Below, one piece after another: positions 36,475 to 47,183 of a DNA stretch of 64,000 nt. The notes beneath the pieces were generated by a model. It saw nothing but the letters and a program-made list of their open reading frames with translations. It was not told the DNA's origin and did no database searches. How positions within the stretch are numbered: the first letter of the stretch is position 1; the number at the start of each line of letters is the position of its first letter. The stretch comes from an uncultured Acidobacteriota bacterium (GTDB taxonomy: Bacteria; Acidobacteriota; Vicinamibacteria; Fen-336): NCBI GenBank assembly GCA_963742595.1, contig CAVUMT010000001.1, positions 3,946,482-4,010,481 on the forward strand, read 5' to 3'. The position numbers were made by a program, and so were the translations under genes.

Positions 36475-38120
36475 TCAGTACCGCTTCAGGACGATCAGGG
36501 TCCGGTCGTCGGTGGCCTTGGCGCCCTCCGCGAAACGGTCGAGCTCGCGGAGGATCTCGTCCTGCAGGCTCGCCGCGTCCAGCCCGCGCCCGCGGATGGC
36601 GAGCTCGCATGAGCCCCTGCTCCCCGAACTCGTCGCCCTCGGGGTTCCAGGTCTCGGTCACCCCGTCCGAGAAGACGAGGAGGGTGTCGCCGCGGCGCAG
36701 CTCCACGAGGCCGTCCGCATAGGGCACGGACTCGAAGATGCCGAGCACCATCCCCCCGTCCTGCAGCTTCTCGACGTTGCCGTCGGAGCGGATGAGGAGG
36801 GGTGGGTTGTGGCCCGCGTTCACGTAGGAGAGCACGCCCGTCTCCGCGTCGAGGGCGGCCATGAAGAAGGTCACGTACTTGTTGGTCGGGGACGTTCTGG
36901 CACACCGTGCGGTTGATCCGGTTGACCGCCTCCGCGATCTTGGGCTCCGTCCAGTGTCCGCGCACCGCCGCCCGCAGGACGGTCATGAGGAGAGCGGCCC
37001 CCGTGCCCTTCCCGGACACGTCGCCCAGGGCGAGGAGGAGGCGCCGGCCCTCGACGGCGAAGTCGTAGTAGTCGCCCCCCACCGTGCGGCAGGGGTGGTT
37101 CGAGCCCACGAGCCCGTAGCCCTCGACCTTGGGCGCCTCCCGCGGCAGGAGGCCCCACCTGGATCTCCGCCGCCATCTTCATGTCCTCTTCCATGCGCCG
37201 CTTCTCGAGGCTCTCCTCGAGCAGCCGCACGTTCTCGATCTTGGCCGCGGCCACGTTGGCGAGCGCGGTGAGGATCCGGAGGTCCTCCTCCCCGAAGGAG
37301 TGGGCGTGCTGCAGCGTGTCGAGGTAGACGAGGCCGATCACCATGTCCTTGCCGCTCCCTCCGGGGCTGAACCAGAGGGGGGCGCACATCGCGGAGCGGA
37401 TCCCCGAGGCGAGGATGCTCTGCTCGGCGCGGAAGCGCGCGTCTTCCATGATGTTGGGCAGGAGGAGGGAGACGCGGTCCTCCAGCACCCGGCGGGCGAT
37501 GGAGCGGCTCACCTGGGCGATGGATCCGCCCGCGCCGGCTGCGCGAGGCCTTGACCTGCAGGGCGCGGGGGATCGCCCTCGAGGAGCGAGGATCGCCCCC
37601 CGCTCCGCGGGCACCGCCTCGAAGAGGAGGTCGAGGACGAGGTCGAACAGCTCGTTCAGCGGCCGGTGCACCACGAGCTCGCTCGCCGCCTTGCTCAGGA
37701 TGGAGAGCACACGGTTCTGTCGCTGCGAGCTCCGCGGGGTCGATGGCGGGCTTCGTGTTGATGTCGCAGAGCTCGCGGACGGAGAAGACGCGCGTCCCCT
37801 CCGGCTCCTCCTCCCGGGTCCTCGCCCTCCTCGGCGCAGAAGGTCAGGCTGTGCTCGCCCAGGGTGATCACGTCGCCCGTCGCGGAGCCGCCGCTCGTCC
37901 TTGACGGGCTGGCCGTTGAGGAGGGTGCCGTTCTTGCTCTGCGAGGTCGAGGACGTAGTATCCGTCCGCCCTTCTGGAGGATCTCCGCGTGGTGGCGGGA
38001 GAGCCATTGATCGGGGAGGAAGATGTCGCTCTCCCGCGAGCGGCCGATCGTCACCCGGTTCTTGACGAGCGGGAAACGCTCCTTGGCCCCGTCCGCGGTC
38101 TGGATGGCGATCTCGGGCAT
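36475..38120 (-). CDS. FHA + GAF + PP2C/SpoIIE phosphatase (frameshifted)
   Basis: FHA IGRSRE..LSRHHA..SKNGT; GAF IRSAMCAPL; VGGDYYD, GDVSGKG, FSDGVTE, DDRT. Confidence 0.88.
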
Positions 38121-38150
38121 GGCAGATTGGACTCGCGCGAAGGGACAAGT

Positions 38151-39107
38151 CTAGCACCTCGTCCGGGCCGCCCGTTCCGCCGCCGCGGCGAGATCCGCGG
38201 CCACGCGCTGGCGGAGGATTTCGGGGGCGACGACCTCGACCCGGGGGCTGAGGCCCATGGCGAAGAACCGCGCCTGCTCTTCGTCCTCGAACTGGACGCG
38301 CAGGGTGACCCATCCCCCGGCATCCTCCGTCCCCTCGACCGGCGACGTGTTCTGCCACGCGCGGATCTGCTCCGCCGCCCGCGGCTCGAGCCGGAACGTG
38401 GCCTCGTAGCGCGGGCGGTTCCGCAGCTCCTCCGTGGACGATTTCCAGTAGGCGGCGAGGTCGAAGTCCGCCGGGCGCTCGGCCGGCCGGTCGAGGAGCC
38501 GTGCGTCCTCGATCCTCGAGACGCGATACGTCCGGAAGCCGTCGGGCGTCCGGGCCACGAGGTACCAGGCGCCTCCCTTGGCCACGAGGCCGAGAGGGTC
38601 GAGCGTGCGCGCGACGCCCTCCTGGCCGGGAGCGCGATACCGGATCGCGAGCTTACGGTCGCGGGCCACCGCGTCCTGGACGATGGGGAGCATGGTCAAG
38701 CTCTCCGGCGCGCCCCTCCAGCCGGTGGTGTCCACGTGCAGGCGCTGGCGGATCGAGGCCGCCTGCTCGCGCATCGAGGTGGGGAGCGCGGCCATGAGCT
38801 TGTCGAGCGCGCGCTCCGCGGCGCGGGCGAGCCGCGGATCGCCGAGGACGCGCGGCTGCGCCATGAGGAGCGCCCGCAGCTCCGCCTCGTCGAGCCCGGG
38901 CACGCGCGTGCGCCATCCCTCCTCGAGCTGCCACCCCCCGTGCGATCCGCGCAGGGCGAACACGGGCACGCCGGCGGCGCCGAGCGCCTCCATGTCGCGG
39001 TGAACGGTGCGCAGCGACACCTCGAGCCGCTTCGCGAGCTCCCGGCCCGTGAGACGTCCGTGCGCCTGCAGGAGGAGAAGCGTCGACAGCAGCCGGTCGG
39101 CCCTCAC
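38151..39107 (-). CDS. YafY-like HTH-WYL transcriptional regulator
   Basis: RADRLLSTLLLLQ..LAKRLEVSLRTVHRD..GG; PLGLVAKGGAWYLVA; RTYRVSRI; GTG start after a GGAGG RBS. Confidence 0.9.
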   Translation of the reverse strand: MRADRLLSTLLLLQAHGRLTGRELAKRLEVSLRTVHRDMEALGAAGVPVFALRGSHGGWQLEEGWRTRVPGLDEAELRALLMAQPRVLGDPRLARAAERALDKLMAALPTSMREQAASIRQRLHVDTTGWRGAPESLTMLPIVQDAVARDRKLAIRYRAPGQEGVARTLDPLGLVAKGGAWYLVARTPDGFRTYRVSRIEDARLLDRPAERPADFDLAAYWKSSTEELRNRPRYEATFRLEPRAAEQIRAWQNTSPVEGTEDAGGWVTLRVQFEDEEQARFFAMGLSPRVEVVAPEILRQRVAADLAAAAERAARTRC

Positions 39108-39169
39108 GTGGGAACCTCCAGGGCGCGGCGATCCGGCCCGCCCTCCAGGTTCGAGGTTAGGCCTTATAT

Positions 39170-39193
39170 ATGTCAGTCGCCGACATGATTGTA
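39170..39193 (-). promoter_or_regulatory. Putative -10 box and inverted-repeat operator of the WYL regulator
   Basis: TACAAT (39193-39188, minus) followed immediately by ATGTC-N7-GACAT (39170-39186). Confidence 0.4.
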
Positions 39194-40177
39194 CTAGTCG
39201 GTCCGCTTCCGCGCGGGCGGCCGCTTCTTCACGGCGAAGTAGCCCTTGCGAACCCGCACCTGCACGTCGGGGCGGCTCGGGATCTTGAGCGAGATCTGGC
39301 GGTAGCCGCCGTCGGGCGCGCGCTTGGGCGAGTAGGCGAGGAGGTAGTGGTTCTTGAGCTCGTTGGAGATCGCCTGGAAGACCTTGGCGAGGTCGCCGAC
39401 CTTGTCCGGGAAGAAGTAGTCCCCGCCCGTCTCGTCCGCGACCTTCTTGAGGAAGCCCTTGGCGCTTCCTCCAAACACCCCCGAGCCGCCCCCCTGGAAG
39501 CCGATGGAATAGACGGTGGCCTCGACCGCGCGCGCGTAGTCCACCACGTCCTGGTCCCGAAGCGAGCTCGTGGTGTCGGCGCCGTCGCTGAAGACCACGA
39601 TGGCCTTGCGCCCCGGCTCGTCCTTGATCCGGCCCAGGCTGTAGTGGAGCGCGTCGTAGAGGCTCGTGCCTCCCCACGCCTGCAGCCCGTCCACGAAACG
39701 CTCCAGGCGGTCCGAGTCGCTCGTGAACTCGACGCTCGCCTTGACGCTCTCGTTGAAGCTGACCACGAGGGCGCTGTCGACCTCCTCGAGCTTGTAGACG
39801 AAGGTCAACACCGCTTCCTGCAGGAAGCGGAGGTTGCGGTTCATGCTGCCGCTCGTGTCGAGGACGAGCACCACGGAGAGGGGAATGCGCTCCTCTCCCG
39901 GCCCCGCGGCCTCCCGGAAATACGAGACCTCCTGGGGGACCCCGTCCTCGGAGAGCTGGACGTCCTTGGGCCCCAGTCCATTCACGAAGCGCCCGGACTT
40001 GTCGAAGACGACCGCGGTGACGGAGACGACGTCCACCGCCACCTCGAGGGTGAGGGGCGGGGGGGTGGGAGCGGGCGTCTGGGAGGGAGAGGGGGAGGGA
40101 GCGACCGTCTGCGCGGACGCGCGCAGGCCCAAGGTCATCGCCCCCAGGGCGAGGAGGTGCTTACCGCGCGATCTCAC
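39194..40177 (-). CDS. VWA-domain protein (acidobacterial VWFA-related type), exported
   Basis: Signal peptide; V.VTAVVFDKSG..L; MIDAS DTSGS, GGTSLYDA, FSDGAD; YLLAYSP..RKGYF. Confidence 0.88.
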   Translation of the reverse strand: MRSRGKHLLALGAMTLGLRASAQTVAPSPSPSQTPAPTPPPLTLEVAVDVVSVTAVVFDKSGRFVNGLGPKDVQLSEDGVPQEVSYFREAAGPGEERIPLSVVLVLDTSGSMNRNLRFLQEAVLTFVYKLEEVDSALVVSFNESVKASVEFTSDSDRLERFVDGLQAWGGTSLYDALHYSLGRIKDEPGRKAIVVFSDGADTTSSLRDQDVVDYARAVEATVYSIGFQGGGSGVFGGSAKGFLKKVADETGGDYFFPDKVGDLAKVFQAISNELKNHYLLAYSPKRAPDGGYRQISLKIPSRPDVQVRVRKGYFAVKKRPPARKRTD

Positions 40178-40761
40178 GCGGGCTCGACCGGGGCCGGAGT
40201 CGCGGCGAGGCGGCGCGCGGCCCAGCCTCCCGCGAGCACGACGAGGAGCACGACGAGCAGGGGGACTAGGAGGGCGAGGGCGAATAGGGCGACCGTGATC
40301 ACGTCTTCGAGCACGCTCAGGATCGGGTTGGCGAGGCCGCCCGTGAGGACGGTGGAGGCGGCCCGGAGCGCAGACTTCGCCGCGTGGGGTACGAGCGCGG
40401 CGGGCGCGCCTATGGCCACCCCCAGCACGATCGCGGTCAAGGGGTCGGGAACGAAGCCGAGCACGGAGGCGGCGAGGAGCGCTCCCACGGCCGGGCGCAG
40501 CGGGGTCCCGATCACGTCGAGCGCGTGGTCCACCGCGGGGATCTTGTCCCCCACGAGCTCGAGAACGGTGGCCGCCGCGAAGATGAGGAGGGCCTTGTCG
40601 GAAGCGAGGAACTGGAAGGCGGGGCCGAGGTCGAGGAATCCCAGCCGGGCCACGCTGCCCGCGAGGAGGAGGGGGAGCCAGGCCCGGAAGCCCGCGCAGG
40701 CCGCGAGGGCGATCGCGAGCCCGACCGTGTAGAGGTGCGCCGGGAGCGACGAGGCGTCCAT
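40174..40761 (-). CDS. DUF4126 membrane protein
   Basis: LAACAGFRAWLPL, E..GDKIPAVDH..D, NPILSVLED. Confidence 0.85.
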   Translation of the reverse strand: MDASSLPAHLYTVGLAIALAACAGFRAWLPLLLAGSVARLGFLDLGPAFQFLASDKALLIFAAATVLELVGDKIPAVDHALDVIGTPLRPAVGALLAASVLGFVPDPLTAIVLGVAIGAPAALVPHAAKSALRAASTVLTGGLANPILSVLEDVITVALFALALLVPLLVVLLVVLAGGWAARRLAATPAPVEPA

Positions 40762-40807: not shown

Positions 40808-41575
40808 TCACTCGCCGTGGAGCGTCACCTGGAAGCTCTCCACGTTCTTCATCTGCTTGCCCTTGAACTCCATGAAGCCGCGGGCCTGCTCCGCCGACAC
40901 CGCGTTCGCGCGGATCGCGCGCACCTCCACCACCGCCTCCCCGCCCGTGAGGTCGCGCCAATGCGGCTCGAGGGCGGTCCCCTCGTTGGACTGGTAGCTC
41001 ACCCGGATCCGCCGTGTCCCCAGCCAACCCCGGGGCAGCTCGAGGGCGAGGCGGACGCGACCCTCGCGCACTTCCGGGGGAGCGAGGAGGACGCCGGGCA
41101 CGGGGAGGAGCTTGAGCGCCTCCGGATCGAAAGCGAAGGAGTTGACCACCGCCTTGGGCAGGTCGCCGGGGTCGAGCGTCGTGTCCACGTACGCGGCCAC
41201 CGTCTTGTCGTCCAGGCGGATGACGAACTGGAGCGAAGGATCCGCGGGAGGCGTCTTGGGGTCCCACGCCTGCCAGAACGTGTTGCCGCCGAGGTCGAGG
41301 ACGAGACGGAGCGGCGAGGGGGCCGGAGCGGCGGGGACGGTCGGGGCCTGCACGGGCGCGCGCAGCTGCTCCTCCGTGCCGTCTTCCTTCTTGATGCGGT
41401 CCACCTTTTCGACGGGGATGACGAGGAGGCCGTAGGGCGTCTGCACCCGGATCCGACGCGTGCCCCGGGCCACGATCTTGCCCGTGATCTGGTCGCCGTC
41501 GCGCAGGACGACGGTGTCCGCGCCCGCGGACGCGGCGACGAGGAGCAGGCCCACCCGCGCGAGGCTTTTCCTCAA
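40808..41575 (-). CDS. Hypothetical secreted protein
   Basis: TTG start overlapping the upstream stop; signal peptide then ADTVVLRDGDQITG (SHD1-like N-terminal motif). Confidence 0.6.
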   Translation of the reverse strand: MRKSLARVGLLLVAASAGADTVVLRDGDQITGKIVARGTRRIRVQTPYGLLVIPVEKVDRIKKEDGTEEQLRAPVQAPTVPAAPAPSPLRLVLDLGGNTFWQAWDPKTPPADPSLQFVIRLDDKTVAAYVDTTLDPGDLPKAVVNSFAFDPEALKLLPVPGVLLAPPEVREGRVRLALELPRGWLGTRRIRVSYQSNEGTALEPHWRDLTGGEAVVEVRAIRANAVSAEQARGFMEFKGKQMKNVESFQVTLHGE

Positions 41576-43232
41576 TTGCCCTTCCTGAACAGCTTCTTGA
41601 TGAGGCCGCCGCCGGTCGTCCCCTTCTCGGGGCTCGGGGACTCCACGGCGAGCGAAGCCATTTCCGAGATGGCACTCTCGTGATCGGGCTGGAGCTCGAG
41701 GACCTTCCGAAGCATCGACTCCGAGCGGGCCTTGAGGCCGCCCGCCTTGTAGATCATGCCCAGCATGAAGTGGGCCTCCACGTGCTTGGGGTCGATGCGG
41801 AGGAGCTCCTGCAGGGTCCTTTCCGCATCCTTCACCCACTTCGGGTTCTTGACCTTCGCCTTGGCCATCGCGATGTGGCCGCGGGCGACGAGCTTGGGGT
41901 TCCTCGCGTGGGGGAGCGCGGGATCGAGGAGCTGGATCGCGTCCCAGTACTTCTCCTTCTCGATGAGCTTTTCCGCGCGGCGGATGTCGTCCTCCGCCTG
42001 CTTGGCGAGCGCCTCGGGGTCGGGAGGGGCCGCCGGGGGCTCGGGCTCGGGAGGACCGGGCAGCACCCTGCCCCCCGTGTCGCGGGGAAGGCGCGATTCG
42101 TAAGCCTCCCGGGTCCTCGAGTTCTTGAGCGTCTCGTAGGCGTCGCCGAGCCGGATGAACAGCGCCTCGAGCTGGTCGCGCAGGTCTCCCAGCGACTCGC
42201 CGTGGTGCACGTCGGGATGGAACCGCTTGGCGAGCCGGAAGTATGCCTCCTTCACCTGGGTTTCCGTGGCCGTGCGCTCGATGCCCATGAGCTCGAAGAA
42301 ATTTTTCTGCTTCATGGTATCGAAGGCTTCGAGGATCTCGGCCCGCCGGCTCGCTCCGACGTCCGCCGCGGGAGTGGTGGGGGCCGGCAAGGATGCCGCG
42401 GTGGCGACGGGCGGCTCGGCCGAAGGAGCAGGCGACGAGGGGGGCGGAGGGGGCGGAGCGGGCGATGGAGGCGGAACGGCCGGCGAGGGGGCGGGCCGCG
42501 GCGGGGGCGCGCCCGCACGGATCTTCTTCTCCCCGTACTCGACGATCCCCGTGCACAGCAGCCCGAAGAGGCTGCTGCTGCGTCTCGTCCGCGGGCAGGG
42601 GGATGAGCTGGATGACTTCCCGCGCCGTCGTCGTGTCGTCCACCCGCGACAGCACGAAGCCGTCCGCGGGGGAGAGCGTGATCTTCTGGAAGCGGAGGAG
42701 CGGGTCGCGCGACTGGAGGAGGACGCGGTCTATGTCGCCGAGGGCGTAGCGCACCACGTCGGGATCGGTCGTCGCGCGCACCGCTTCCAGGATGAGCTCG
42801 CCGGTGGAGAACCTGAGCGTGAGCTCCGACTCCGCCTCGGGGACCTCCTCCTCCACGAACTCGTAGGTGCCCTCGTTCCAGGAGAACACGCGGGCGAGGC
42901 TGTCGTGCACGTGGAGGGCGATCGCGTTCTCGAGCTGGTCCCTCGTCGAGCGCCCCGAGCTGGATGAGAGCCTGCCCGAGGCGCATCTTCTGCCGCACGA
43001 CGAACTCGGTGGCCCGCGCGAGGTCGTGGGCGGAGACGAGCCCGCGCTTCTGCAGGAGCTCCCCGAGCCGTCCCTCCGTCACGTTGGTCTGGACGTTGAT
43101 GATCGTCCCGCGCGCGAAGCGGACGCTGTAGCGGTCGCCGCCGCGCAGGAACTGGAGGGTCCCGCTCTTGCGGCCGACGTAGATCTCCCGAAGGAGACCG
43201 GGGAGAACACCCTCCTCTATGGTTCCCTGCAT
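41572..43232 (-). CDS. DUF4388 + MshEN-like motif + J-domain + TPR protein (frameshifts ~42950, ~42590)
   Basis: GLLREIYVGRKSGTL; RLGELLQKRGLV; WNEGTYEF; Pro/Ala linker; AYFRLAKRFHPD; TPRs. Confidence 0.8.
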
Positions 43233-43301: not shown

Positions 43302-44344
43302 CTACTTCTTGCGCGCGGGTCGGTCCTTCAGCTCCTGGAGGTTGAAGCGGTGGACGAGCGACAGGTCCTTCATCGTGACGACACCCGGCCGCGCGGCCAT
43401 CACCTTGGGGATGGCGTTCACGGCGATGGCGGCGGTCGCGATGTCCCCCGCCACCCCCCCCGACGATCGTGACGTCGATGGGGGGATCGCCGTCCACGAG
43501 CACGTGGTCGCGCGGGGATTCCGCCCCCACGTACATCTGGAGGTCGAGGCTGATCGCGAGCTCGCCGTCCCGGTAGCCCCGGGCGGACTGCTTGATCCCC
43601 GCCGCCGCTCCCGCCGGGAACCGCAGGTACTCGGTGTCGAGGTCGCGGGGGGCGATCGCGGGCTCCATGGTCTCGTCCACGCGGTCGAGCTTCCAGCCCA
43701 GTCCGTGCGCGATCATGTAGACGGACTCGGCGAGGCCCACGTGGCGGACGGAGTTCTCGGTCACGCGCCCGGCGGAACTGGCTGAGGTTGAGCCCCGCCC
43801 CCACCTTGCGCTGCAGAGGGAGCCGTCGTGACCCCGCGTCCACCACCCGGGTGACGGCGATTCGCTTGACCCTGGCGCAGGGGGCGGTGAGCACGAGCGC
43901 GAGGGTATCCATCGCGTAGCCGGGGTTGACACCGGTGCCCAGCACGATGACCTTCTTCCGCTGCGCGAGGCGGTCCAGCTCCCGGAAGTGCGACTGGTTC
44001 GCGGGGGGTGGGGAAGGCTCAGCTCCTCGCAGGTGCGTCACCACGTTCATGCCGCGCTGCACGAGGGCGGCGATCTGCGGCTTCACGTCCTTCAGGGAGG
44101 AGCCGGTGCAGAGGATGGCGAGGTCGGCCCTCGACTTGCGCACGAAGCGCGCGGGATCGCCCGCGACCTTGATCCGCAGCTTCCGGGGAAGCCCGAGCAC
44201 CACTCCCAGGTCCTTGCCCGCGTGCTGGGGCGAGGGATCGGTGGCCCCCACGACCTGGAGCCCTTCCGTGCCGAGGACGAGCTTCGCGATTCCCTGCCCG
44301 ATGGGTCCCAGCCCGACGAGCACGACCTTCAGGGGACGAGCCAT
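43302..44344 (-). CDS. NAD(P)-dependent dehydrogenase, 2,4-diaminopentanoate dehydrogenase / native amine dehydrogenase family (frameshifted)
   Basis: GLGPIG Rossmann motif; VVTTCEEL on reconstruction; GTGVNPGYAMD; QRKVGAG; HVGLAES; GDIATAA..NAIP. Confidence 0.75.
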
Positions 44345-44399
44345 CTTCTTCCTCGTGGTTCGGTCCGTCGTTGCGCCCGGCGTCCCCCGGGCTTCTCGC

Positions 44400-44630
44400 C
44401 TAACGCTCGACCTCGATGGTCGCCACCGTCTCCTCCTCCGCCTCCACCGCCATGATCACGGTGGACTGGATGGGGAGCAGGGTGGTGTAGTTCTTCCCCG
44501 AGGCCTCGAGCAGGACCTCGAAGAACCCGTCGGGGGCCACCCGCACGAGACGACCCTTGGCCACCTTCGCCCCCAGGGTATTGGCCAGGATCTCGCTGTA
44601 GATCCGAACGGTCGCCTCGCGGTCGATCAT
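44400..44630 (-). CDS. 76-aa hypothetical protein
   Basis: MIDREATVRIYSEILAN..EVER; starts 2 nt after the lat stop; GC-typical codon use. Confidence 0.7.
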   Translation of the reverse strand: MIDREATVRIYSEILANTLGAKVAKGRLVRVAPDGFFEVLLEASGKNYTTLLPIQSTVIMAVEAEEETVATIEVER

Positions 44631-44632
44631 GT

Positions 44633-45968
44633 CTATAGCTCCTTCAGGCTCTTGCGCACGATCTCCAGGCCCCGGTCCGCGTCCGCCTCGGTCAGGTTGA
44701 GGGCGGGGCGGAAGCGAAGCGACCGCACTCCGCTCATCAGGAGCAGGAGCCCGTTTTCGATGATGCGCTCGTGGGCCTTCTTGCGAATCTCCGGGGTGGG
44801 AAGATCGAGGGCGATCATGAGCCCCTTGCCCCGGGCGTTCGTGACGAGCGGGCGAGAGCTCGCGCTCCAGCGACTCGAGCCCGCGCCGGAGGTGCTCGCC
44901 CACCATGCGCGCGTTCTCCACCAGGCGGTCCTCCGCGATGATCTCGAGGAAGCGCGCGCAGCGCACCATGTCCGTGAGCCCGCCGCCCCAGGTGGAGTTG
45001 ATGCGCGAAGGAACCTTGAAGACGTTCTCGGGCTCCTCGTCCACCTTCGGTCCCACGAGGCACCCGCAGCACCTGCGTCTTCTTGCCGAAGGCGAGGGCG
45101 TCCGGGCTGCAGGCCGAAGTGCTCGTGGGCCCACATCCGGCCGGTGAGCCCGATGCCCGTCTGCACCTCGTCGACGATGAAGAAGCAGTCGTACTTCCGC
45201 GCCGCCGCCTGGAGAGCGCGCAGGAACTCGGGGCGGAAGTGGTTGTCCCCTCCCTCGGCCTGGATGGGCTCGATGATGATCGCCGCGATGTCGTCGGGGT
45301 GGTCGACGAAGGCCTTCTCGATCTGCTCGAGCGACCGCTGCTCCGCGGCGATCACGTCCCGCTCCACCTCCGGGGTCACCGGGAAGCGGAGCTTGGGGTT
45401 GTCGACGCGGGGCCAGGGGAACTTGGGGAAGTAGTCGGTCTTGCGGGGATCGGTGTTGGTGAGGGAGAGCGTGTAGCCGCTGCGGCCGTGGAAGGCCTCG
45501 CGGAAGTGGAGGACCTGCGTCCCCTTCTCACCGGGGATTCCCTTCGCCTTGTTGCGGCGCACCTTCCAGTCGAACGCGACCTTGAGCGCGTTCTCGACGG
45601 CGAGGGCCCCTCCCTCTACGAAGAAGGCGTGCGGGAGAGAGGAGGGGATGGCGTGCCGGGCGAACGTCTCCACGAACTGCGCGTACTCCACGCTGTAGAC
45701 GTCCGAGCAGCGAGGGCTTCAGCTGCGCGACCCGCTGGAGCGTGCGCAGGAATTCCGGCTCCTTCATCTTCGCGTGGTTGTATCCGAGGGGGTTCGAGCC
45801 GAAGAACGTGCAGAAGTCCAGGTAGTCGCGTCCCCGGCGCGCGTCGTGGAACCACGAGCCGTGGCTCCTCTCGAAGTCGAAAACGAGGTCGAAGCCGTCG
45901 GCGAGGAGGTGACGGCCGAGGATCGAATGGACGTCCGCCGGGGAAACCGGCAGCAGGGTCGTGCTCAT
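44633..45968 (-). CDS. lat: L-lysine 6-transaminase, class III PLP (frameshifts ~45710, ~45065)
   Basis: ADGFDLVFD..SHGS, FFVEGGALAVENALK.AFDWK, AFHGRSGYTLSLT, IEPIQAEGGD, DEVQTG, AFGKK, INSTWGG. Confidence 0.88.
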
Positions 45969-46040
45969 GGCTTTCGAAAGCTCCGCGGAGGCGACGGCGG
46001 TTGACGGAAGGGGAGGGTGGACACGCGGACCGTCACCGCC

Positions 46041-46121
46041 TTAGGTCATCCCCCGGTCGTATTGCGACAAGAGCTCTCGATTCAACGCTTTATCCTGTGC
46101 GAAAGCGCGCAGGATCGACAT
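46041..46121 (-). CDS. Candidate 26-aa upstream ORF/leader peptide in the lat 5' region
   Basis: MSILRAFAQDKALNRELLSQYDRGMT*, preceded by GAGG and by an extended -10 TGcTAACAT (46154-46146). Not in the ORF track. Confidence 0.4.
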   Translation of the reverse strand: MSILRAFAQDKALNRELLSQYDRGMT

Positions 46122-46187
46122 CCTGCCTCGGTCGCTATGCGGGCAATGTTAGCACAGGGAACCGGGGGGGTATAATCGGTCGTCCGC

Positions 46188-47183
46188 ATGGCATCGCCCA
46201 TCGACGCCGGCTTTCTGCGTAACTCCGACTTGTTCGAAAACCAGCCGGAAGAGGTGCTTCAGGCCGTCCTCGCCCAGGGGCTGGTGGTCGAGTTCGGTCC
46301 CGGGGACGTGGTGTTCGGCCAGGGGGAAGAGGGCGACCGGCTCTACATCGTCAAGAGCGGAGTTCTCGAGATCCTGTCCGCCCCGGTGGACGGCACCGAG
46401 GCGGTGCCCGTCGCCTACCTGGGAAAGGGCGAGGTCCTGGGAGAGCTCGCGCTCCTGACCGGCTCCCCGCGCAGCGCCACCGTCCGTTCGCCGGAGTCGG
46501 CGGAGCTCTTCGCCGTGGACAAGTCGGTCTTCATGGACCTCATGGAGACGCTGCCCCTCCTCTCGCGCAACCTCTGTATCGTCCTCGCCCGGCGCCTGGA
46601 GGCCACCACCCTGAAAGTGCCCCGGGCGGGGGGCAAGCAGCTCCAGGGCAACCTCAAATTCTTCGACCTCGCCACCGTGATCCAGACGCTGATCGGCGCG
46701 CACCAGACGGGCACCCTCGTGGTCACCCAGGAAGGCGGCAAGCACAAGATCGCGGAGATCTTCTTCTTCAAGGGGAACGTCGCCCGCGCCCGCTACAAGC
46801 AGCTCGCCGGGGACGACGCGGTCTTCCAGCTCTTCCAGAGCGCGCTCGAGGGCGAGTTCGCCTTCGCGGGCCGCCAGGTCCAGGAGGAGGAGGTCCAGAC
46901 GGACATCTCCATGCCCGCGATCTCGCTCCTCATGGAGTCGGTGCGGCTCCAGGACGAGCTGCCCGGGCTCAAGGAGAAGCTGCCGGATCCCGACCGCATG
47001 TTCCACCAGAAGTCGGGGCAGCTCCAATGGGAAGAGGCGGAGACCGTGGAGCTCGCGGCCGCGGTGTGGTCGCGCCTCAAGAAGGGGGTCTCCCTCAACG
47101 ACCTCATGCGGGACGTCCCCCGCAGCTCATACGCCATCTACCGGACGATGGTCACGCTCGTGGAGACGGGCCAGGCCGGCTAG
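46188..47183 (+). CDS. cNMP-binding domain + DUF4388 protein
   Basis: GEEGDRLYIVKSG, GELALLTGSPRSATV; LQGNLKFFDLATVIQTL..QTGTL; TATAAT at 46171-46176. Confidence 0.85.
   Translation: MASPIDAGFLRNSDLFENQPEEVLQAVLAQGLVVEFGPGDVVFGQGEEGDRLYIVKSGVLEILSAPVDGTEAVPVAYLGKGEVLGELALLTGSPRSATVRSPESAELFAVDKSVFMDLMETLPLLSRNLCIVLARRLEATTLKVPRAGGKQLQGNLKFFDLATVIQTLIGAHQTGTLVVTQEGGKHKIAEIFFFKGNVARARYKQLAGDDAVFQLFQSALEGEFAFAGRQVQEEEVQTDISMPAISLLMESVRLQDELPGLKEKLPDPDRMFHQKSGQLQWEEAETVELAAAVWSRLKKGVSLNDLMRDVPRSSYAIYRTMVTLVETGQAG

Follow-up and report, generated by a model that had tools for sequence, protein, structure and literature searches.

An operon of lat, a small gene and a group G1 amine dehydrogenase in one order of Vicinamibacteria: a possible unusual route of lysine catabolism

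Which reaction is carried out by an amine dehydrogenase whose gene shares an operon with that of an L-lysine 6-transaminase (Lat)? The question is raised by a 64,000-nucleotide stretch of DNA from an uncultured Acidobacteriota bacterium (contig CAVUMT010000001.1 of assembly GCA_963742595.1, positions 3,946,482 to 4,010,481 of the forward strand), which we call the window and to which positions refer unless another contig is named. Lat converts lysine and 2-oxoglutarate into glutamate and 2-aminoadipate 6-semialdehyde, which cyclises to piperideine-6-carboxylate (P6C), and in the lat-pcd lysine catabolism of Flavobacterium lutescens, Streptomyces clavuligerus and Mycobacterium tuberculosis it acts together with the P6C dehydrogenase, Pcd. 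A first-pass annotation of the window had described an operon of lat, a small open reading frame and a gene of the amine dehydrogenase family at 43302-45968. Our analysis bears out this description and its coordinates, places all three genes on the minus strand, and shows that the trio forms a genuine operon, which one order of Vicinamibacteria has kept across three of its families.

The operon and its conservation within the order

The region 43302-45968 runs exactly from the start of lat to the stop of the dehydrogenase gene. lat (44633-45968, minus strand) encodes about 443 amino acids once four single-base insertions are discounted, and its three frame pieces (45528-45968, 44633-45691 and 44400-45134, all minus) match TIGR03251 and Pfam Aminotran_3. 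The small gene (44400-44630, minus) begins 2 nt past the lat stop and is an intact open reading frame of 76 codons, predicted to encode a beta-barrel protein of SH3/KOW-like type whose C-terminal tail is acidic and disordered. The dehydrogenase gene (43302-44344, minus) begins 55 nt further on; it lies in three frame pieces, matches DapB_N and DAP_DH_C (PF19328) of Pfam and encodes 345 amino acids after five single-base insertions are discounted. The G+C content of the region is about 70%, and the third-position GC (GC3) signal switches between frames. Among public sequencing runs we found only partial holders of the operon (share at most 0.24), none of them RNA.

The relatives analysed were 41 genomes of one order of Vicinamibacteria, from which 12 loci belonging to three families were fetched. 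An ortholog of the dehydrogenase is present in 39 of the 41 genomes. lat is a single-copy gene, and in 33 of the 35 relatives that bear it, it is located directly upstream of the dehydrogenase gene, on the same contig and strand; in the other two the contigs are too short for its position to be judged. The linkage, whose conservation had been proposed as a check on the operon, is thus kept. The order lat, small gene, dehydrogenase is intact in ten of the 12 fetched loci, with each gene in one frame. Neighbouring genes overlap or stand up to a few tens of bases apart, except in family f3, where about 90 nt separate the small gene from the dehydrogenase gene. The dehydrogenases of the three families are 55-62% identical to the window copy, and the trio stays united while the flanking genes vary between families. 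The small gene is found in all 12 loci, and its product always accompanies the dehydrogenase of the lat-linked clade. In two genomes (G016 and G003) lat is cleanly gone, and the small gene and the dehydrogenase gene still stand beside the same divergent neighbour. Because these two genes survive in genomes without lat, they are the constant core of the operon, and lat is a frequent but dispensable partner.

In the window, lat and the dehydrogenase gene are broken by nine single-base insertions, as seen in the alignment to an ortholog from the same genus (L021, 88% DNA identity). The insertions in lat are at about 45711, 45106, 45070 and 44852, and those in the dehydrogenase gene at about 44037, 44017, 44000, 43765 and 43465, three of the latter falling inside 40 nt and compensating one another around the catalytic motif. 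Nine frame-breaking insertions inside 2.4 kb could mean that the frameshifts are genuine and that both genes are pseudogenes in the source organism, a reading that we regard as very improbable. Every one of the nine is the insertion of a single base, and at each site covered by contigs of four independent metagenome runs (43765, 44037, 44849-52, 45069-70 and 45104-06) the extra base is missing from all covering contigs. In addition, GC3 remains high in the shifted frames. The source genome (G000, 6.8 Mb) has a marker-gene completeness of only 57% in an assembly of 6 contigs, and breakage of this kind affects further genes: several of its aldehyde dehydrogenase genes are split into 3-5 frames (for example C1:3672246-3673562 and C5:345512-346886). 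Since all changes are of a single base, independent contigs lack them, completeness is low and other genes are cut likewise, the nine insertions are very probably assembly errors. With single-base indels at such a high rate, genes of this assembly should be called pseudogenes only with caution. The further work relied on the intact orthologs of a relative that is 97% complete (L013), namely P0001 (Lat), P0002 (small protein) and P0003 (dehydrogenase).

Identity of the three proteins

The lat pieces of the window score 77.7, 380.5 and 89.9 bits against TIGR03251 (LAT_fam); between them they span positions 1-373 of the model as well as its C-terminus. The intact ortholog P0001 reaches 618.6 bits, above the equivalog cut-off of 520.8, and aligns end to end with the Lat of M. 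tuberculosis (2cin; 2.1e-129, about 52% identity). The motifs kept in comparison with 2cin are FGKKTQVCG, with the lysine that binds pyridoxal phosphate, EPIQ(A/G)EGGD, HGRSGYTLSLTN, NST(F/W)GGN and RFRP, all of which we take to have active-site roles. On this evidence we accept the earlier assignment of the window gene as one that encodes a true L-lysine 6-transaminase.

The nearest solved relatives of the dehydrogenase (P0003) are 7xdu (1.4e-66) and AmDH4, 6g1m (2.4e-59), which represent 2,4-diaminopentanoate dehydrogenase (Ord) and the AmDH4 of Petrotoga mobilis, both in group G2 of the native amine dehydrogenases. These proteins share with P0003 the fold, the catalytic Glu and, judged from the alignments, roughly 40% full-length identity. 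Group G1 is defined by an Arg at position P12, where Ord-type G2 enzymes have a Phe, together with an Arg at P9 and a His at P15 (Elisee et al. 2024, PMC11164908). Residues Glu102, Arg161, Phe168 and His197 of AmDH4 correspond to Glu106 (P3, catalytic), Arg165 (P9), Arg172 (P12) and His200 (P15) of the dehydrogenase, and Asn163 is replaced by Val167. Glu106, Arg165, Arg172-Arg173 and His200 are invariant in the orthologs. After removal of the insertions the Glu motif reads (S/T)TCEE, which agrees with the TTCEE that had been reconstructed in the first-pass annotation; the intact orthologs carry STCEE or TTCEE, and Cys-Glu-Glu is invariant in 25 of 25 sequences. The spacing from the Glu to the two Arg residues, 59 and 66 residues, equals that of E103/R162/R169 in the G1 model E1QRK4 of Vulcanisaeta distributa, so that known G1 enzymes (PMC11164908) share with this one the Glu at P3, both Arg, the His and an identical spacing. 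Judged by these residues, the dehydrogenase belongs to G1, an orphan group of native amine dehydrogenases. Asp36 occupies the cofactor position R1, at the NAD ribose, and under the published rule that links an Asp at R1 to NAD(H) (PMC11164908) this predicts acceptance of NAD(H).

The annotation had offered two names for this protein, 2,4-diaminopentanoate dehydrogenase and native amine dehydrogenase. The second stands, with the catalytic Glu in place, whereas the Ord-like part does not: P0003 scores 282 bits against NF040740 (Ord), under the equivalog cut-off of 400, and has Arg for Phe at P12. Ord is therefore rejected. None of the genes of ornithine fermentation (oraSE, ortAB, orr) was found as a neighbour in the ten loci examined, where the neighbours are lat, the small gene and cyclic nucleotide (cNMP)-binding/DUF4388, DUF4126, VWA and PP2C genes. 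DapB, the usual database name of such proteins, was also rejected (24.3 bits against TIGR00036, cut-off 122); of five relatives checked, four carry a dapB in addition to the G1 gene.

All but a few of the 150 nearest representatives of 50%-identity clusters, aligned at full length, are of the G1 type, the few exceptions having one or two residues changed. In the FastTree phylogeny the lat-linked dehydrogenases form one clade with a local support of 100 and a long stem of 0.46. Eleven relatives hold a second, generic G1 paralog elsewhere in the genome. The paralog of G006 (C42:30316-31293, L069) shows 47% identity to P0003 across its full length, and those of the other ten are 42-45% identical over the part compared. 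In G006, the only relative examined in this respect, the paralog adjoins a gene for an LD-carboxypeptidase (Peptidase_S66).

Other acidobacterial G1 genes, with 33-50% identity, occur in 51 of 251 genomes, a tally that includes one unpublished genome (G064), which enters into no other result given here. In 20 fetched loci of these genes neither lat nor the small gene was found beside them, and G1 contexts elsewhere vary widely. Two low-GC acidobacterial lineages carry a G1 dehydrogenase together with a HemL-like class-III aminotransferase (L060:6903-9332 and L077:7934-10387, gaps of 34 and 46 nt). With 266-289 bits the two aminotransferases, which share 53% identity, stay under the cut-offs of 398-527. 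They provide a further, independent case in which an aminotransferase accompanies a G1 dehydrogenase. The lat operon resembles them in the tight linkage of a class-III aminotransferase gene to a G1 gene, and differs from them in that the aminotransferases are of the HemL-like subfamily, the small gene is missing and the dehydrogenases belong to different clades. Another G1 gene, encoding P0125, is separated by 8 nt from the genes of a TAXI-type TRAP transporter upstream of it (NMT1_3 binding protein, DUF1850 and DctM; L086:1-5005 and L088:1-5005), which is a possible hint at an imported anionic substrate.

About 1,400 native amine dehydrogenases of group G1 have been modelled, and neither docking, virtual screening nor assays of more than 40 expressed enzymes, most of them insoluble, gave a substrate (PMC11164908). 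Four proteins from Acidobacteria metagenome-assembled genomes were among the G1 enzymes assayed (PMC11164908); these proteins (A0A2V7V0R6 and others) could not be placed relative to the lat-linked clade. According to the same authors there is no consensual genomic context for G1, and the substrate is expected to end in a carboxylate, with the amine that reacts lying further away (PMC11164908).

The small protein has 71-76 amino acids across the order, a mean column identity of 70% in the alignment and an invariant Val/Ile-Glu-Arg at the C-terminus, after the acidic tail. GC3 of its gene is 0.93-0.99 in the high-GC relatives. A pattern scan found it confined to Vicinamibacteria, and its 1183 homologous metagenome clusters, of about 71-75 amino acids, are all annotated as hypothetical. 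There was no sequence match in Pfam, NCBIfam or PDB. The AlphaFold2 model (pLDDT 78.5) has five strands, arranged as a barrel, and an acidic tail of low confidence, and fold searches returned generic SH3, KOW, Sm and Tudor barrels only (Foldseek E >= 0.03, Z <= 6.4). According to the model, the protein is an SH3/KOW-like beta-barrel with an acidic disordered tail. A search for longer forms gave 12 singletons that resemble miscalled genes and no recurrent fusion. Prediction of a complex with the dehydrogenase, made with two alignments, gave a score of 0.00, which speaks neither for nor against binding. Amino-group carriers of the LysW type have zinc-ribbon cysteines, a C-terminal Glu as acceptor and an ATP-grasp ligase in the cluster. 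Such a carrier was rejected here, as the small protein has no conserved Cys and ends in Glu-Arg and the operon has no ligase gene.

Candidate reactions of the dehydrogenase

The absence of Pcd, the usual partner of Lat, had been part of the case for an unusual route, and a search for pcd elsewhere had been proposed. The absence holds in the 64-kb window, where a comparison of the match coordinates in the genome with the window position gave no aldehyde dehydrogenase gene. Pcd was likewise not found in G000, where the best match to NF050084 reaches 355 bits (cut-off 730) in a genome ridden with indels and the intact aldehyde dehydrogenases carry names other than Pcd. Nor was it found in the genus of G000 or in eight lat-bearing relatives that are 96-100% complete (G005, G006, G008, G010, G012, G013, G015 and G022). 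For the order as a whole the absence does not hold, since Pcd is present in 19 of the 41 relatives (754-827 bits), always unlinked to lat, and therefore the dehydrogenase is not simply a substitute for Pcd. No conserved neighbours of pcd were found in six loci. G016 has the small gene, the dehydrogenase and Pcd, and lat was not found in it.

Lysine itself is made by the diaminopimelate route in the relatives, because lysA is present in five of the five checked and dapB in four. A Lat that runs in reverse as a lysine synthase was rejected on the same genes. In G011, a single-contig genome that is 94% complete, no dapB scored above the cut-off and the sole TIGR00036 match is the G1 dehydrogenase (27.7 bits); the missing dapB may be an effect of assembly errors.

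The reading that we rank first, and hold tentatively, is that the dehydrogenase, probably with the small protein, interconverts P6C and L-pipecolate with NAD(H); a reduction of P6C to pipecolate had already been suggested in the first-pass annotation. Lat would generate P6C and glutamate from lysine; P6C is reactive, so genomes without Pcd need a sink for it, and the only redox enzyme of the operon is the obvious candidate. In the many Pcd-less members, including G000, the dehydrogenase would thus reduce P6C to pipecolate, and where Pcd is present it would run in reverse, from pipecolate to P6C, and feed Pcd. The gene content of G016, with dehydrogenase and Pcd and without lat, fits this reverse reaction. 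Native amine dehydrogenases use NAD(P)H to reduce C=N intermediates in their protonated form, and DapB, a distant homolog, reduces a cyclic imine. The separate, long-stemmed clade and the second, generic paralog in eleven relatives are signs that the lat-linked dehydrogenase may have specialised. A narrower form of this proposal, which we consider doubtful, makes the small barrel protein an obligatory subunit whose acidic tail retunes the pocket, so that the pair would be a dedicated P6C/pipecolate oxidoreductase. Speculatively, the tail would dock in the Arg-rich G1 pocket and adapt it to a mono-carboxylate substrate.

Several observations weigh against a P6C/pipecolate enzyme. ProC is already able to reduce P6C. 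lat was not found anywhere in G003, G004 and G016 (95-99% complete), where the small gene and the dehydrogenase gene are intact, and G003 and G004 are without Pcd as well. As the two genes are kept there without lat, a substrate must exist without Lat. The 11-position pocket signature, with its three Arg, is the commonest G1 type and is common to many enzymes away from lat; these three arginines suggest a di-anionic substrate and a pocket more cationic than P6C needs. G1 enzymes had no clear activity on nine hypothesised substrates, including piperidine-2,6-dicarboxylate (PMC11164908). P6C and pipecolate are not named among the compounds tested on G1 enzymes in the portion of that article available to us (PMC11164908).

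An alternative is transdeamination, in which the G1 dehydrogenase would oxidatively deaminate the glutamate made by Lat, or the downstream 2-aminoadipate, with NAD+. The 2-oxo acid would be regenerated and ammonium released, and Lat and the dehydrogenase would together act as a net lysine deaminase. A pocket of Arg165, Arg172, Arg173 and His200 suits two carboxylates, the signature is generic for G1, the dehydrogenase is of the NAD(H) type, and such a role accounts for the survival of the small gene and the dehydrogenase after loss of lat. The HemL-like aminotransferases beside G1 dehydrogenases in L060 and L077 and the G1 gene downstream of the TAXI-TRAP transporter point in the same direction. 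We nevertheless consider transdeamination rather unlikely: the relatives already hold one or two ELFV glutamate dehydrogenases plus a large NAD-dependent glutamate dehydrogenase, P6C would be left without a sink in Pcd-less genomes, and by stereochemical reasoning an (S)-selective enzyme whose methyl pocket holds a carboxylate would match the D-form of an amino acid rather than the L-form. Moreover, neither a substrate nor a consensual context has been reported for G1 (PMC11164908). A lysine epsilon-amine dehydrogenase, which would interconvert L-lysine and 2-aminoadipate semialdehyde with NAD(H) and ammonium, seems still less probable. It would work parallel to Lat or oppose it, as a lysine-mediated route between ammonium and glutamate. 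The conversion of a primary amine to a carbonyl and ammonia is the canonical reaction type of the family. The expectation of the G1 authors, a carboxylate at the end of the substrate and a reacting amine at a distance from it (PMC11164908), also speaks for this reading, and G016, with Pcd and the dehydrogenase and without lat, needs another source of the semialdehyde. Two enzymes for one product would nonetheless be odd in a single operon, the P6C burden of Pcd-less genomes would increase, and G1 enzymes were not significantly active on beta-lysine or 5-hydroxylysine, both close analogues (PMC11164908).

The arrangement could also be inherited synteny only, with the small protein and the dehydrogenase doing a general G1 job and lat merely lying upstream. 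The seemingly unrelated flanks (cNMP/DUF4388, DUF4126, VWA and FHA-GAF-PP2C genes) are also syntenic across the order, the contexts of G1 genes elsewhere vary widely, and the small gene and the dehydrogenase persist without lat. On the other hand, the trio shares one strand and tight gaps across three families whose dehydrogenases are 55-62% identical to the window copy, single-copy lat is located there wherever its position can be judged (33 of 35), and the flanks change between families while the trio stays joined. We therefore regard mere synteny as somewhat improbable, and the interconversion of P6C and pipecolate remains the reading that we rank first.

Neighbouring genes, related systems and meaning

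The leader of lat (45969-46187, minus strand) is common to a divergent gene, which encodes a cNMP-binding/DUF4388 protein (46188-47183, plus) and is kept in most loci of families f1 and f2; both features were placed by the open reading frame map and Pfam. A riboswitch search in the 219-nt leader gave no Rfam family at E <= 1. The single promoter-like site of the leader (46149-46176) is on the plus strand and points to the divergent gene. Directly downstream of the operon lies a DUF4388 gene (41572-43232, minus) which is frame-broken like lat and the dehydrogenase gene. A DUF4126 membrane protein, a VWA protein and an FHA-GAF-SpoIIE (PP2C) phosphatase are encoded downstream of the dehydrogenase in seven of ten loci, for example at 36871-40761 of the window (minus) and at L018:3826-7112. 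These three genes, a conserved signalling trio, are immediate neighbours of the dehydrogenase gene in family f3 and at two loci of f1 (L019 and L020); at the remaining three f1 loci and in the window a DUF4388 gene is inserted in between. No metabolic hint was obtained from them.

Compared with the lat-pcd catabolism, the operon has the same first enzyme, Lat, and a true Pcd occurs as well in roughly half of the order. It differs in that Pcd is never linked to lat here and the partners within the operon are an amine dehydrogenase of the DapB fold and a small protein. Known routes to pipecolate are Lat with ProC, lysine cyclodeaminase and the P2C reductase DpkA. Under the reading that we favour, the net reaction from lysine over P6C to pipecolate would be the same as that of Lat with ProC, whereas the reductase, unlike in any of these routes, would be DapB-like and have a small accessory protein. 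To our knowledge, the DapB-like family is not known for the P6C-to-pipecolate reaction. Unlike other G1 enzymes, the lat-linked dehydrogenases form their separate long-stemmed clade in one order of Vicinamibacteria, and their gene is always preceded by the small gene and usually by lat. They are also set apart from Ord/AmDH4 by the replacement of Phe168 by Arg and of Asn163 by Val, by the score below the Ord cut-off and by the lack of nearby ornithine-fermentation genes. In a literature search we found no paper that links lat to a native amine dehydrogenase. The components are thus of known kinds; what is new is their combination, the lineage-specific small partner and the handle on an orphan group.

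The linkage to lat across the order narrows the search for a G1 substrate to a handful of lysine-derived or Lat-coupled metabolites. The adjacent small gene suggests a missing partner, which, speculatively, could explain the insolubility or inactivity of most G1 proteins that have been expressed. Native amine dehydrogenases are in demand as biocatalysts. What becomes of lysine in Vicinamibacteria has some ecological weight too, given how abundant these bacteria are in soil. If the small protein is indeed a subunit of a P6C/pipecolate oxidoreductase, the pair would represent a new enzyme family for this step and would give group G1 of the native amine dehydrogenases its first physiological reaction, and it would reveal a Lat-dependent, Pcd-independent branch of lysine metabolism in abundant soil Acidobacteriota.

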